Shown: piece after piece, positions 1,687 to 60,944 of the stretch
Position numbering within the stretch: the first letter of the stretch is position 1
Layout of the letters: every line of letters starts with the position of its first letter
Program-made: the position numbers and the translations under genes
Virus record (IMG/VR): IMGVR_UViG_3300020576_002361
Coordinates: 1 to 64,000 of that record
DNA from: a virus
Taxonomy: Duplodnaviria > Caudoviricetes
DNA length: 64,000 bases
Direction: 5' to 3' (one strand)
Notes under the pieces: model-generated
Databases searched by the model: none
Told to the model about the DNA's origin: nothing
Seen by the model: only the letters and a program-made list of their open reading frames with translations

Positions 1687-1694
1687 TTTGTCAG

Positions 1695-1740
1695 GACCGG
1701 ACGAGGTTATCAATACCTCGTCCGGTCTTTTATTTTTATT
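1695..1740 (+). terminator. Rho-independent terminator
   Basis: 13-bp stem GACCGGACGAGGT/ACCTCGTCCGGTC, 7-nt loop, followed by a T-rich tract. Confidence 0.9.
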
Positions 1741-1781: not shown

Positions 1782-1809
1782 TTGACACCAGATTTTCAGA
1801 GCATATAAT
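1782..1809 (+). promoter_or_regulatory. Early/middle-type promoter TTGACA-N16-TATAAT
   Basis: Member of a 13-copy motif family with an invariant 16-nt spacer. Confidence 0.7.
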
Positions 1810-2963: not shown

Positions 2964-2968
2964 ATGTT

Positions 2969-3039
2969 GAGTTTGTAGTTCAGTGGCAGAACAGGAATCT
3001 CTAAAATTCTATGCGTGGGTCCGATTCCCACCAAACTCA
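2969..3039 (+). tRNA. Amber suppressor tRNA (anticodon CUA)
   Basis: Acceptor GAGTTTG/CAAACTC, D-stem GTTC/GAAC, anticodon arm GGAAT-CT CTA AA-ATTCT (CTA at 3001-3003), T-stem GTGGG/CCCAC with loop TCCGATT, A73. Confidence 0.85.
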
Positions 3040-3044
3040 TTATT

Positions 3045-3116
3045 GTCTTCTGAGCTTGTAAGGCTAAGCACCTGACTCTTAATCAGGAGAACAGAGTTCG
3101 ATTCTCTGAGGAGACA
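3045..3116 (+). tRNA. tRNA-Lys (CTT)
   Basis: Cloverleaf with CCTGA-CT CTT AA-TCAGG. Confidence 0.85.
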
Positions 3117-3142
3117 CTTTAACCCTTTATAGGAGGTATTAT

Positions 3143-3466
3143 ATGAGTTAGGAATATGTATACGTATTTGTTAGGAAAGACCTGAGTTATTCTCAAATTT
3201 GTGTTCAAGCAATCCATGCGGTTATTGAACATTGTAAGAACTTTTCTCCGTATGAGAATGTACACCCAAACGTGATTGTTTTCGAGATAGAGGATGAAAA
3301 ATCCTTAATATTAGAAATGAATAAACTATCAAACAAAGGGGTAGATCTGGTTCCTTTCTACGAACCGGATATAAACAACAGATTAACATCATTCGCATGT
3401 AAGACTGTTTCTGGATTAAACAGAAAGACATTTTCAAAATATAAGCTTTTAGGAGAAAAGAAATGA
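3143..3466 (+). CDS. Peptidyl-tRNA hydrolase type 2-like protein (107 codons) with in-frame TAG at codon 3
   Basis: SD AGGAGG at 3131-3136, then ATG AGT TAG GAA TAT GTA... The frame continues as YVFVRKDLSYSQICVQAIHA...FYEPDINNRLTSFA (PTH2-family VRKDL, Q-x-x-HA and EPD motifs). The ORF track catches only 3272-3466. Confidence 0.8.
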
Positions 3467-3948
3467 ACGATGTAAATGTAGGATGCGTAGAAATCGGTAC
3501 CGCTCACGAAGGTAAGTATGGTTTTTACTGCGTAGATAAGACTACTTGGAATAAGATAAAGGTTATTCGCAAGCATTTCTATAGAACTTTAACAAAGGCT
3601 CATGCTTGGCAAAGGTATTACTCTAAAGCTAAACACAACAGAAAAGGTATTGCTCCAGAGCTTTCTCCAGTCGACCTGGTCTTCTGCGAGCAGCTACCAA
3701 CATTCGAATACGTAAGAACCCCTTGGTTCCCTAAGAAATATCTTCAAACCCAAAAAAATCATGAAACCTATTTGAATGTGGATATTCGAATAGTGGAAAT
3801 CATGGAAGTGGCCAGGATGAACTGGGCAACCAAAGAAGTAGCTGAAAAGTTCTCTTTGACCAAGGTTCAGCTAGATTCTGGTCATATGTGTGGTATGGGA
3901 TATTATGTTAATATGATGTATGATAAGATAACACAAGCCTTAAGATAA
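3463..3948 (+). CDS. Hypothetical protein (161 aa)
   Basis: ORF coupled to the upstream stop (ATGA). Confidence 0.7.
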   Translation: MNDVNVGCVEIGTAHEGKYGFYCVDKTTWNKIKVIRKHFYRTLTKAHAWQRYYSKAKHNRKGIAPELSPVDLVFCEQLPTFEYVRTPWFPKKYLQTQKNHETYLNVDIRIVEIMEVARMNWATKEVAEKFSLTKVQLDSGHMCGMGYYVNMMYDKITQALR

Positions 3949-8340: not shown

Positions 8341-8412
8341 GGGTCTGTAGTTCAGCGGCAGAACGGCGCCCTGTTAAGGCGCGTGTCGGTGGTTCGATCC
8401 CACCCAGACCCT
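8341..8412 (+). tRNA. tRNA-Asn (GTT)
   Basis: GGGTCTG/CAGACCC; GCGCC-CT GTT AA-GGCGC. Confidence 0.9.
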
Positions 8413-8507: not shown

Positions 8508-8598
8508 GGATGGTCGACGCAGGTCGGTGAGGCGTAAGCGATTGCTAATCGCTCGTATCCATATATGGGTACCGTCAGTTCAACTCTGACACCATCCG
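8508..8598 (+). tRNA. tRNA-Ser (GCT)
   Basis: Long variable arm, G73, AGCGA-TT GCT AA-TCGCT. Confidence 0.9.
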
Positions 8599-8602
8599 CT
8601 TT

Positions 8603-37982: not shown

Positions 37983-38659
37983 TTGACTTTCTCATAAAAA
38001 GAATCTGCGCAGGCTGTAATAAATTTTCGATATCCAAACTCGGCAAGATAATTTGCAACCCCACCCTCATCATTATTCTCACAACTGATAAGCCCAACGC
38101 TGTAATTTCGCAAGTCAAGACCTCGCAAAATCTCCAATTCGTGTCCTTCGCAATCAATTGAAAGATAATCGACGTGTTGTATGTTATTATCTTTCAATAT
38201 ACTATTCAAGGTAAGACAAGATACATCAGTTTTTTTTAGTTTACTTCCGTGTATTATCAATTCCTTTTGGATTCTTTCTTCCGACGCAGCATCAACGCAC
38301 GAAGCAAGTCGAGAAAGACCGTTTGCACCAGTATCAATTTCATAAAATTTGGCTATACCCTCTGACGAGGCACAAGCACAATCATAGAATTTATTCTTAT
38401 CCGAGCTTCTATTTTTTGTCAATTGCTCAAAGAGATACTTATTTGGTTCAATACAAATTCCACTCCATCCATAGAAATCCTCCAACATAAGAGTATTGTC
38501 CCATGCAATACCATCATTGGCTCCAACATTCACATAAAATAGATCTCTTTTACCATGATAATACCGTACAGGGATTTCGGCTGGTTGTGGCCTTTGGATG
38601 CCGCAATCTCCATTAAATCCGGGGTATTTCCTTAAAAATTCTTCCAAAGGAACATTCAT
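37979..38659 (-). CDS. FkbM-family methyltransferase
   Basis: VNVGANDG, GICIEPN, LSIDCEGHE. Confidence 0.85.
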   Translation of the reverse strand: MNVPLEEFLRKYPGFNGDCGIQRPQPAEIPVRYYHGKRDLFYVNVGANDGIAWDNTLMLEDFYGWSGICIEPNKYLFEQLTKNRSSDKNKFYDCACASSEGIAKFYEIDTGANGLSRLASCVDAASEERIQKELIIHGSKLKKTDVSCLTLNSILKDNNIQHVDYLSIDCEGHELEILRGLDLRNYSVGLISCENNDEGGVANYLAEFGYRKFITACADSFYEKVK

Positions 38660-39729
38660 TTTATAGCACTCTCCAACGCATTACAAATTGCGGTTTTAAC
38701 TGTTGTGTACTCATATTTATCCTTGTATTTTTGAAGAACCGCGAGAGAAGATGTATTACGATACGCGTCATCGTTTCGCAAACGAATCATTTCGTCAGTA
38801 TATTCTTCTATGCTGTTAGCAATTTTATCACATCCCTACAACATTTCAACATGCCCCTGATCTACATCTGATGGATGTGAAATAAGAGGCAATCCATGGG
38901 ACATAGCTTCTATGATACAAGCAGAGCATACTTCGCCAAAAGGTTTTGCGTGCGTATAACAATTTATTGTTCGTAAGAATTTGTGAATAACTTCTGTATC
39001 CGATGTATGATTTAAAAAATGTACATTTTTAATGTTACGATCTTTGGCATACTGTTTATACTTATCACATCCACCAAGAAGAATAAAATGACTGTCTTGA
39101 ATTCGAGAAAAAGCATCTAATGGAATGGTAGAAAATAATCCAGAATCATTTCGCTGATGAAACCCATAAACATATTCAGAATCACCGATTCCAAAATCTT
39201 TTCTAAAATCATCATTCTGTTGCGGTGGAATAAAAACGATGGATGGAATAATATGTAATTTAGAAATATCTCCCCCGTTATGTATCCATTTTTTAGCCTG
39301 CCATTGGCAAAGTAAAATATACTTTACAATATTATTTTGTTTGTGTACGTGAACTCCATGAACAGTATCTACAATAGGAGTCTTTGTAATATGGGTAAAT
39401 GGATACTCTGGATATCCACCGCGTGCAGAAACTACTAAATCATAATCATTTTCATTGAATTTAGAAAACAAATCTGTTCCATACCACATAGAATTGCTAA
39501 TCAGATCAACATGAACTGGAATTGTATTGATTCCAAAAGATTCAATGTATTGTTTTCTCATCGGATCATTTGGTGGATGCCGCCAATCGGTCCCTTCTGA
39601 CGGAGCATTATTAGTGTAAAAATAATCTACAGAATGACCGCGTTCGGCCATAAAAGCAGCTATAGTTTGCAAATATCGCTCGCCACCACCGGAACTCAAT
39701 CCTGCCGTTTTAATAAATGCTATTCTCAT
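38656..39729 (-). CDS. GT4 glycosyltransferase (357 codons) with in-frame TAG at codon 298 (38836-38838)
   Basis: GGGERY N-motif and GEVCSACIIEAMSHGLP motif. After the TAG the frame stays open for 59 codons (GCDKIANSIEEYTDEMIRLRND...) to a TGA overlapping the next ATG (ATGA). Confidence 0.8.
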
Positions 39730-39745
39730 TACTATTATTTCCTTA

Positions 39746-40420
39746 TTATCTCATTGATGTTTTATAAACACCGATTTCCGAGCCTTGTAGAACCAACGGC
39801 GGCTCCCACCAATATACCTCGTGATTGTGAAGATCCATCTGGTAATTCAGCTCCCAATCAATACACAAACTAAATGGAATAATAGTTTCAAGTAAGGTTT
39901 GACATGTTTCTTTTTTGATAACTGTCGCAGATACACATCTCGCCGCCGGATGCCCCTTTAAATAAACAGATTTGCCATCTACTATATTTTCCGCGTGTAA
40001 ATTACAACCAGAGCCGAGAAATATCATATCATACGTTTTTGGAGTTTCCTCATACATTTTACGAAATTTTAAAACAAAATCTGTATCCAAGATAGAATCG
40101 TCTTCTAAAATTAGAGCATAAGGATCATTTCCTTCAGCAATCTTCTTATAAACTTCTATATATTTAATGGTAACTGAGTAATCAGAAAGGCGCATCTCCC
40201 GTGGCTGCGCATGAGGAAACCACTTTTTGAATCTATTATATTGCTCTTCAAAAGACAAGTTACAATATTTTTCAATAATATCATTCGTTAACTCATTACC
40301 ATCAAAATCTTCATAAAAACCGTAATTTGAAAATCTATGAAACTTCATCTGACTAATCATCATATCTTTTCGTTTTTTTAATGTTTTACAATGGATGATG
40401 TAAGTTTTTAAGTCAAACAT
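39746..40420 (-). CDS. GT25-like glycosyltransferase
   Basis: YIIHCKTL.KR, ALILEDD, IDWELN. Confidence 0.8.
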   Translation of the reverse strand: MFDLKTYIIHCKTLKKRKDMMISQMKFHRFSNYGFYEDFDGNELTNDIIEKYCNLSFEEQYNRFKKWFPHAQPREMRLSDYSVTIKYIEVYKKIAEGNDPYALILEDDSILDTDFVLKFRKMYEETPKTYDMIFLGSGCNLHAENIVDGKSVYLKGHPAARCVSATVIKKETCQTLLETIIPFSLCIDWELNYQMDLHNHEVYWWEPPLVLQGSEIGVYKTSMR

Positions 40421-59550: not shown

Positions 59551-60117
59551 TCAAATATTTAAGTTGGATTTTACAATGTTCAATAACGACGGCATATCAA
59601 AGGATGTGACTTCTATATAAGGGAATTCCAAATTTTTTAGGGTGAGTCTAGCCATTGTATCAAGATTTATTGCTTCATCCAGTGATTGAAATCGACCTTT
59701 TCCGTTATATGGCTTATCGTGATCTCTTACCAGCATGACATGAAGAGCTGGATACTTGGCTTCGAAGGCTAGAGCTGCTTGCTTTAGCTCAGACCTACAA
59801 TCCAAGTTATAAGCTACCGTGTACATATAAGAAAGCGGTAGTGGAGAATCTGTTATGATTACATCTACTCCATTCTTTAAGCATACTTCTTCTGATCTCA
59901 TTTGCTTAGAAAAGATATAAAACTGATCGAATCCAGTTATTTTTCTTCCTTCCCAAGCCCATGTTTTAACGTATTCTCTAACTAGCTCGTATTGCTTTAC
60001 GTGGTTGTTGCTATTACTATGCATTTTCATTTCATAGTATAGCCCGGCTGCCATAGTAGACTTACCAGTACCAGGACCGCCGTATAAGTTTATTCTTCTA
60101 ATCGTCATATCGTGCAT
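59551..60117 (-). CDS. P-loop kinase (AAA_28/NadR-like)
   Basis: INLYGGPGTGKST, EYVK, IITDSP, GRFQ. Confidence 0.8.
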   Translation of the reverse strand: MHDMTIRRINLYGGPGTGKSTMAAGLYYEMKMHSNSNNHVKQYELVREYVKTWAWEGRKITGFDQFYIFSKQMRSEEVCLKNGVDVIITDSPLPLSYMYTVAYNLDCRSELKQAALAFEAKYPALHVMLVRDHDKPYNGKGRFQSLDEAINLDTMARLTLKNLEFPYIEVTSFDMPSLLNIVKSNLNI

Positions 60118-60592
60118 CCCTATGATGTAAAATTGTTATACCATTAAGATGGTCTATTTCGTGTTGTAAACAAATGGATTCCAGTCCATCTAACTCAAAG
60201 AACTCTTCTATATTAGAAATAGGTGTGTGCGAGAAGGTGGACTTATTCCATCTTCTGACACAAACATATTTATTTGGAATAGACAGACAACCCTCTTCCG
60301 TAACAATAGTATTCCCCTCTTCTGCGCTGGCTCCTATCCACTTAGGATTGATATAAGATTTTATATTACCATTGCATTTAGTAATAGCAACTCTGAGATC
60401 AACGCCTATTTGGTTAGCGGCTAACCCAATACCGCCTTCGGCTATCATGACTTCAGTCATTCTTTCTATAAGTTCATTTACCGTATCTATCATAACCAGA
60501 TCATCCATATTTACCCAGTTGCACGGTCGAAGTAATGTATGATGAGGATATGTTACTAGATTATGCCCGCTAAATTGATTCTTCTTTTTCAT
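60098..60592 (-). CDS. def: Peptide deformylase
   Basis: GIGLAANQIG, EGCLS, QHEIDHLNG. Confidence 0.95.
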   Translation of the reverse strand: MKKKNQFSGHNLVTYPHHTLLRPCNWVNMDDLVMIDTVNELIERMTEVMIAEGGIGLAANQIGVDLRVAITKCNGNIKSYINPKWIGASAEEGNTIVTEEGCLSIPNKYVCVRRWNKSTFSHTPISNIEEFFELDGLESICLQHEIDHLNGITILHHRDARYDD

Positions 60593-60944
60593 ATGCTTTT
60601 TTTATTTTCCAAAGAACTTCGGCTTGACAGAGATGCCCTGGTTGACCAAACATATCAGATAGACCAGATTTGGATAGCAAAATGGGCACAAGATTTTGTT
60701 CATGTACCCACTCCCACCACCATTTATGGTATTGTTCTTTACATTCTTTTATATTGATTGGGGTTTTGCCCTTGGCTTCTTTCCAGCTTAACCCCGTGGA
60801 GCCATCTGGAAAGATTTTCATAGCCTGGTACGCTTCTTCGATGGATCTTCCACCAAGAGATTTTGGTCTAGCGTAGAAAGCAGAAAATCGCTTATCCCCT
60901 CTAGACGAACACTCGTAATACGGTTCGTGCCCATATTTTAGCAT
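60570..60944 (-). CDS. Conserved hypothetical phage protein
   Basis: YECSSRGDKRFSAFYA...SIEEAYQAMK. Confidence 0.65.
   Translation of the reverse strand: MLKYGHEPYYECSSRGDKRFSAFYARPKSLGGRSIEEAYQAMKIFPDGSTGLSWKEAKGKTPINIKECKEQYHKWWWEWVHEQNLVPILLSKSGLSDMFGQPGHLCQAEVLWKIKKAYEKEESI

Follow-up and report, generated by a model that had tools for sequence, protein, structure and literature searches.

A candidate suppressor-gated PTH2-like gene beside a tRNA-CUA gene in an IMG/VR phage record

The window analysed here is the first 64 kb (64,000 nucleotides) of the 79-kb IMG/VR virus record IMGVR_UViG_3300020576_002361, which has an estimated completeness of 44%. At positions 3143-3466, on the plus strand, it contains an open reading frame (ORF) of 107 codons with a predicted PTH2 fold. 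The third codon of this ORF is an in-frame TAG, and its ATG lies 103 nt beyond the end of a gene for an amber-suppressor tRNA with the anticodon CUA. The early TAG is probably a gate that makes synthesis of the PTH2-like protein depend on the phage tRNA-CUA, with 3143-3466 forming one gene. The window locus has both an early in-frame stop without an alternative start and a co-oriented, matching tRNA-CUA nearby, and dozens of distant phages, several of them cultured, keep this layout of stop and matching tRNA. A sequence-only reading of the same site had described a minigene resembling those of lambda bar. The main result corrects this to one gated gene, not a bar-like trap for tRNA-Ser.

The early amber codon and the PTH2-like reading frame

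The gene start consists of the Shine-Dalgarno (SD) sequence AGGAGG (3131-3136), a spacer of 6 nt, the start ATG (3143-3145), a lone sense codon AGT for serine (3146-3148), and the TAG at codon 3 (3149-3151), which is followed by G. The ribosome-binding site and start were read from the sequence, and the gate was assigned from the sequence, a start-codon scan, and the structural model. The arrangement of an SD with Met-Ser-stop given by the sequence-only reading, AGGAGG-N6-ATG-AGT-TAG, is exact to the base. The codons after the TAG are GAA TAT GTA TAC GTA, and the frame stays open for 104 codons past the gate. The first canonical in-frame start (ATG, GTG, or TTG) after the TAG is a GTG 41 codons on, at 3272, and initiation there or at any later codon would mean the loss of strand beta1 and helix 1. 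With no canonical start between the TAG and beta1, the earlier statement that the full-length product requires amber readthrough is borne out. The bare pattern of an SD-like sequence with ATG-NNN-TAG is not rare, and a loose search finds 8 such sites in the window. Among TAGs followed by at least 60 open codons, the one at 3149 is the sole case in the window that has a start just upstream and none nearby downstream. In the translations of this ORF and its relatives, Q at TAG is a convention, as the amino acid carried by the suppressor is not assignable from sequence.

The AlphaFold model, made with 74 relatives in the alignment, has a predicted local distance difference test score (pLDDT) of 93.4. 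In it the first beta-strand spans residues 5-11 and so begins two residues past the TAG. In a Foldseek comparison with the PDB, the best 13 matches are without exception Pth2 enzymes or proteins with that fold (2zv3, 3erj, 1q7s, 1wn2, 1xty, 1rlk, and 2gax among them), with template modelling (TM) scores of 0.66-0.76, a probability of 1.00, and a sequence identity of 14-23%. The model thus clearly predicts a Pth2 fold for the product of 3143-3466. At the sequence level, the family profile retrieves solved Pth2 chains (E=1.2e-7), and 56 of the 74 relatives match the Pfam family PTH2 (PF01981) at E<=0.01, the best at 1.1e-8. The motifs VRxDL and (V/A)QxxHA are common to the family and to Pth2. 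The "two-codon minigene" of the sequence-only reading is right in its anatomy, comprising a strong SD, an AUG, one sense codon, and a stop. It is not a free-standing leader, since it makes up codons 1-3 of a 107-codon ORF with a first beta-strand from residue 5.

ARAGORN finds 19 tRNA genes in the window. Three of them form a plus-strand triplet ahead of the gated gene: tRNA-Met(CAU) at 2890-2964, tRNA-CUA at 2968-3040, and tRNA-Lys(CUU) at 3045-3117, which ends 13 nt ahead of the SD. The tRNA-CUA is of class I with the anticodon loop CU-CUA-AA, and its canonical ends are probably 2969-3039, judging from G1-C72, A73, and U8-A9. It shares 83% identity with the tRNA-Sup-CTA annotated in Yersinia phage fHe-Yen9-04 and in Serratia phage BF. 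When DNA-level relatives of the locus were sought in the cultured-phage collection, the tRNA alone was matched. The tRNA-CUA and the phage's own tRNA-Asn(GUU) at 8341-8412 have nearly the same D-arm (TAGTTCAGTGGCAGAAC in the tRNA-CUA), and they differ in the acceptor and anticodon stems.

Early stops and suppressor tRNAs in related loci

The early stop is conserved among the close relatives of the window gene. A word-indexed protein search gave four relatives, and their DNA reads ATG-AGT-TAG at 94%, 85%, and 73% identity and ATG-TTG-TAG at 40% (locus L010). ATG-AGT-TAG is identical in loci L002-L009, and every close-relative homologue that is readable at the DNA level keeps the early TAG. Two of the database proteins among these close relatives are truncated calls beginning inside beta1. 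A more distant gene, with 31% identity, on a viral contig of 225 kb reads ATG-AAA-CAC-TAG and has a tRNA-CUA directly downstream. A stop at codon 3 has the look of an amber mutation, but a broken gene or an assembly error is effectively refuted here, as assemblies made independently from many samples, and the finished genomes of cultured phages, show the same stop.

An exhaustive profile search collected 2,082 representatives at E<=1e-3. An alignment of 17 sequences was used to retrieve 64 viral loci, mostly on contigs of 100-570 kb, and 69 loci were compared in all. A gene was counted as gated when the nearest in-frame stop before beta1 had a start 1-5 codons ahead and no canonical start in between. 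The 69 loci contain 37 distinct gated genes, with the stop at codons 2-6 and always ahead of beta1. The same layout was found in 13 of 843 other long ORFs of these loci (1.5%), which served as the control. In the TAG-gated genes the leader has mostly two (n=17) or three (n=13) codons, and less often four (n=3), five (n=2), or one (n=1). Of the 37 gated genes, 30 have an SD-like core ahead of the leader's start codon; for ATGs of any kind in the same DNA the figure is 13.8%. Directly after the gate TAG, 22 genes have A, 14 have G, and none has C or T; first-position purines have a frequency of 64% in the genes of the window phage. A purine after the stop is a context favouring suppression. A further TAG within the body is present in only 2 of the 37 gated genes, which mostly terminate in TGA or TAA.

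In L017 and L018, about 45 nt upstream of position 3001, the N-terminal tail contains two in-frame TAGs (M-R-P-F-Q-TAG-T-K-E-E-Y-G-TAG-D-Q-H-F-Y-V-Y). This arrangement makes sense only if the first TAG is read through. It bears on the idea that the leader is an upstream mini-ORF and that translation re-initiates at a nearby non-canonical codon, without suppression. Bacteria and phages do have short upstream ORFs with coupled restart, and A is often the first base of the codons behind the gate, with ATT, ATC, and ATA occurring among them. None of the five codons listed above after the window TAG is a known start, however, and re-initiation needs no match between stop and tRNA and leaves two successive TAGs unexplained, which makes this explanation very unlikely. 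As a separate observation, a double gate such as that of L017 and L018 would make the output depend steeply on suppressor activity.

The protein databases carry traces of the same layout. Among 149 database representatives, 53 begin inside beta1, and Q is found at positions 2-6 in 33 of the 77 that have short tails. Spot checks showed that the Q of P0062 is encoded by TAG and that the truncated call P0017 conceals an upstream M-S-G-F-T-TAG. The database's own gene calls need TAG to be read as Q. The occurrence of P0011, which has an ordinary start, beside the gated P0062 and P0017 indicates that the gate is common but not universal.

ARAGORN detected 41 suppressor tRNAs (36 distinct sequences) in the 69 loci, nearly all co-oriented with the gene. 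They are diverse in sequence, belong to class I, and have the CU-CUA-AA loop. A tRNA-CUA lies within 3 kb in about 21 of 39 TAG-gated loci. In two loci the early stop is TGA (L059, M-E-S-TGA; L060, M-V-F-T-TGA), and a tRNA-UCA is found just upstream. A search for more opal loci, seeded with both TGA-gated genes, returned only these two. In the subfamily with normal starts (MKMYVLVRxDL), a tRNA-CUA usually begins less than about 20 nt from the stop of the gene, and one member has a tRNA-UUA. This ochre-type tRNA (L074:3309-3384) lies directly downstream of the ungated gene, in which no early TAA was seen. The pairing of enzyme and tRNA is the deeper association, and the gate is a layer added to it in one large branch.

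What is conserved, namely agreement between stop and anticodon, a purine directly behind the stop, a start led by an SD, and terminators mostly other than TAG, points to decoding by the suppressor.

A tblastn search of GenBank phages finds the PTH2-like gene in 33 records. In Serratia phage BF (KY630187.1) it occupies an unannotated gap at 286080-286417 (L077:781-1118), and a tRNA-Sup lies 3.3 kb downstream. The gene of Acinetobacter ME3 begins M-T-TAG; a tRNA annotated as "anticodon CTA" is situated about 420 nt upstream, and the coding sequence is truncated. Ralstonia RsoM2USA has an unannotated gene with M-L-TAG, and Salmonella Arash has M-L-TAG with a 50-aa fragment labelled peptidyl-tRNA hydrolase. 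RaK2 seems to lack the gate. In KY630187.1, LT960551.1, MT939486-8, MW879342-4, and MG752970.1, which comprise Serratia BF, Yersinia fHe-Yen9-03/04, the Erwinia pEa_SNUABM series, and Ralstonia RsoM2USA, no feature is annotated over the gene. The early stop hides it from annotation pipelines. Gating would explain the missed or truncated gene in Serratia BF, Yersinia fHe-Yen9-04, Ralstonia RsoM2USA, Acinetobacter ME3, and Salmonella Arash.

The authors of the XacN1 genome looked for targets of its two tRNA-CUA genes and found none (PMC5852040). ORF364 of this phage (L084, ~150-175), a two-domain protein with a C-terminal PTH2-like domain, has an SD-proximal ATG-AAG-TAG and may be, as far as its sequence suggests, the missing target. 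Its gating is ambiguous, because the annotated ATG lies 4 codons past the TAG. A layout like that of XacN1 was also seen in L016 (M-N-L-A-TAG) and L026 (M-S-F-T-TAG). In Atu_ph07 a UCA suppressor occurs together with putative Pth genes (PMC6102473). The suppressor tRNAs of XacN1 and Atu_ph07 are of the same kind as those described here, tRNA-CUA or tRNA-UCA, but the client proposed here has an N-terminal in-frame stop and not a C-terminal extension.

Proposed mechanism, the minigene reading, and known systems

In the proposed mechanism, ribosomes would start at the SD-led ATG, read the serine codon, and reach the UAG. Without suppression, termination or drop-off would follow after two residues. 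In the presence of charged tRNA-CUA, an amino acid would be inserted and the full PTH2-like protein made, which presumes that the tRNA is expressed, charged, and able to decode UAG. The 161-aa ORF that overlaps the gene would probably be made in the same way. Placement of the stop at codons 2-6 would likely have three benefits: a failed attempt wastes no more than a tiny peptide, the inserted residue falls in the tail ahead of the fold, and RF (release factor) termination is at its slowest in this range, which should favour the suppressor kinetically. The substrate may be peptidyl- or aminoacyl-tRNA by-products of stop-codon readthrough, but this is a guess.

The sequence-only reading had likened the site to the minigenes of lambda bar and proposed a self-balancing circuit. 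In the form weighed here, SD-AUG-AGU-UAG would be selected as a bar-like minigene, failed readthrough would yield fMet-Ser-tRNA(Ser), the substrate of the enzyme, and the circuit would be buffered by tRNA-Ser(GCU). The anatomy does fit a two-codon minigene with a strong SD. The phage encodes a tRNA-Ser(GCU) (ARAGORN, 8508-8599) and a peptide deformylase (match at 60116-60562, minus strand, 120 bits), both of which had been named correctly, in addition to a product with the Pth2 fold. In E. coli, shortening a minigene from 8 to 2 codons increases the drop-off of peptidyl-tRNA and makes termination by RF slower, and either Pth or the cognate tRNA reverses the toxicity of minigenes (PMC2490762). 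All 37 gates, at codons 2-6, fall in the range of highest drop-off and slowest termination in E. coli (PMC2490762). This confinement is compatible with selection for the kinetic regime of minigenes, and by analogy an unsuppressed ribosome at 3149 would plausibly release fMet-Ser-tRNA.

The minigene analogy is nevertheless structural and is not the conserved trait. The last sense codon takes 16 values, for about 11 amino acids, across the 37 gated genes, and one leader is ATG-TAG without any peptide, so that no particular tRNA is targeted. With this variety, and with leaders of 1-5 codons, the bar-like sequestration of tRNA-Ser does not hold. The stop type tracks the tRNA anticodon, a match that a minigene does not need. 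Ungated family members are also tied to suppressor tRNAs, which makes the link between tRNA and enzyme independent of any minigene. The self-balancing circuit fails on its own terms: the enzyme is made only on successful readthrough, when the site yields the least substrate, and bacterial hosts own a Pth that would clear the by-product. Minigenes gave no detectable peptidyl-tRNA in pth+ cells (PMC2490762), and the supply of substrate to such a circuit would therefore be negligible in a normal host. Taken as a whole, selection as a bar-like minigene is improbable.

The gate differs in the same respects from lambda bar, which uses the codon AUA (Ile), and from the synthetic E. coli minigenes. 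The likeness consists of a strong SD, an AUG, one sense codon, and a stop, at a length prone to drop-off, with Pth as the counteracting activity (PMC2490762). Here, in contrast, the stop is in frame with the full domain and obligatory for it, the last sense codon is unconserved, and the stop follows the neighbouring suppressor tRNA. Toxicity of the bar type is seen only in cells deficient in Pth. A second relative in design is prfB, the gene for release factor 2, which has an early in-frame UGA and an output set by termination against alternative decoding. The conserved early in-frame stop in a regulated gene is shared with the gene described here. In prfB, a +1 frameshift is used and the product itself reads the stop, whereas here the decoding would be in frame and by a tRNA. 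The archaeal and eukaryotic Pth2 enzymes (PF01981) share the fold and the VRxDL and (V/A)QxxHA motifs, but the present family occurs in phages, is linked to suppressor tRNAs, is only 14-23% identical to them, and has Glu and Gln at the Asp and Lys positions. The code-15 phages (crAss-like and Lak, with TAG as Gln) also require a phage tRNA-CUA to read in-frame TAG, and a Sup-CTA tRNA is present in about half of the predicted code-15 phages (PMC11210395). The genome here, unlike theirs, uses an essentially standard code, and one small client gene beside the tRNA has its stop pinned to codons 2-6.

Several observations weigh against suppressor gating or against the enzymatic role of the product. 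Ordinary starts occur in many family members (P0011 and the MKMYVLVR subfamily), which shows that the gate is not essential to protein function. The covariation of TGA with tRNA-UCA is seen at two loci only. In L006 and L009 the gate persists, and no intact tRNA-CUA was seen on the short contig. Eight of 98 genes in the window end in TAG, and an efficient suppressor would therefore extend some of the phage's own proteins. The window protein (P0001) does not reach the Pfam PTH2 cut-off, with 15.9 bits against 23; the Pth label of the sequence-only reading holds only in part, for the fold given by the model and Foldseek and not for the Pfam score. In the profile alignment, the Asp of the Pth2 motif D-A-G-x-T corresponds to a near-invariant Glu (E74), and the region of the Lys of G-K corresponds to Gln. 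This Asp and this Lys are what we take to be the catalytic residues of solved Pth2 enzymes. With Glu and Gln in their places, the protein is termed PTH2-like and its hydrolase activity is putative only.

The two loci without an intact tRNA-CUA have unusual sequences in its place. At L006:645-684, at the contig edge, the stop of a 213-aa ORF cut off by the end of the contig is followed immediately by a tRNA-CUA-like sequence of which only the 3' half is present. It could be a split or intron-bearing suppressor or a disrupted one, and the downstream ATG-AGT-TAG is intact. At L009:566-665, a tRNA-Met is followed by the 5' half of the window's tRNA-CUA and then by a tRNA-like stretch of unrelated sequence, the loop of which reads CTCTAAA. 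This stretch scores 22.9 bits for the Rfam tRNA family, below threshold, and gives no clean cloverleaf. The suppressor of L009 may have been replaced or rearranged.

Suppressor-dependent gating would give a concrete client, in the adjacent gene, to suppressor tRNAs, which are frequent in large standard-code phages and the targets of which are an open question. It would represent a use of phage stop-codon recoding to switch one specific gene, of which the literature apparently contains no description; full-text searches for suppressor tRNA with Pth2, or for in-frame stops in jumbo phages, turned up no account of the cassette. Workers on genetic-code expansion may also take an interest in such a compact natural switch, in which translation depends on a suppressor. 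A further proposal, which is speculative, is that the cassette is a closed loop. The enzyme level would report the contest between the suppressor and RF1, at a site adapted to this contest by its position at codons 2-6 and the purine behind the stop, and the enzyme would act on dropped-off peptidyl-tRNA-CUA or on the charged suppressor and so set the readthrough level in the infected cell. If true, this would be the first conserved dedicated client of suppressor tRNAs in standard-code phages, and the by-product of the minigene would be a minor side stream.

Genome code, transcription unit, and neighbouring genes

Standard-code ORFs of at least 100 codons, taken from stop to stop, cover about 90% of the window. 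In a crude set of 98 genes the terminators are TAA (53), TGA (37), and TAG (8), and about 2 of the 98 contain an in-frame TAG. Recoding of TAG across the whole genome (code 15) was considered and rejected on this ORF coverage and on the finding of only two plausible in-frame TAGs. The few genes with an in-frame TAG and the eight ending in TAG indicate that there is no bulk recoding of the genome.

The second in-frame TAG lies in a GT4 glycosyltransferase ORF (38656-39750, minus strand), at 38836-38838, residue 305. A Glyco_trans_1_4 match at residues 211-326 spans this TAG, and 59 further codons follow before the TGA. From its sequence, this gene is a probable second client of the suppressor tRNA, which would then be in use in this phage, if sparingly. 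The GT4 gene also agrees with ordinary sparse recoding, in which TAG is a sense codon wherever it is found and the position in the PTH2-like gene is kept by descent, without regulatory meaning; phages with suppressor tRNAs in which TAG is read as Gln are well known (PMC11210395; PMC10879173). This explanation has little probability. In-frame TAGs are as scarce as stated, and genes that end in TAG coexist with them. The gate remains at codons 2-6 down to about 30% identity with differing leaders, while the body is nearly free of TAG, and it becomes TGA where the tRNA has UCA. The rarity of the layout in the control ORFs is a further point in favour of gating over descent.

The tRNA triplet and the gated gene are probably on one early transcript. 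Co-transcription is inferred because there is no space for a promoter between the end of tRNA-Lys (3117) and the SD (3131). A promoter-like site with the sigma-70 consensus, TTGACA-16-TATAAT (12/12; 1782-1809, plus strand), was found by pattern match only, and a strong terminator-like hairpin of 15 bp with a T-run (1693-1729, plus strand) is situated just ahead of it. Both are upstream of a 299-aa ORF (1991-2890), the TAG stop of which abuts the tRNA-Met gene. By its sequence, the site at 1782-1809 is likely the start of the transcription unit that contains the tRNA triplet and the gated gene.

The terminator TGA of the gated gene (3464-3466) overlaps the next ATG as ATGA. This ATG opens the 161-aa ORF (3463-3948, plus strand), which matches no Pfam family and has a 4-nt overlap with the gated gene's stop. 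It is probably translationally coupled and hence also dependent on readthrough. A role for it as a conserved third component of the cassette was rejected, as it is present in close relatives only.

The peptide deformylase ORF (60098-60592, minus strand) and its upstream neighbour (60570-60944, minus strand) both terminate in TAG. Back-up TAA stops lie 11 codons past the TAG of the deformylase and 2 codons past that of the neighbour. An active suppressor would give part of the deformylase an 11-residue tail.
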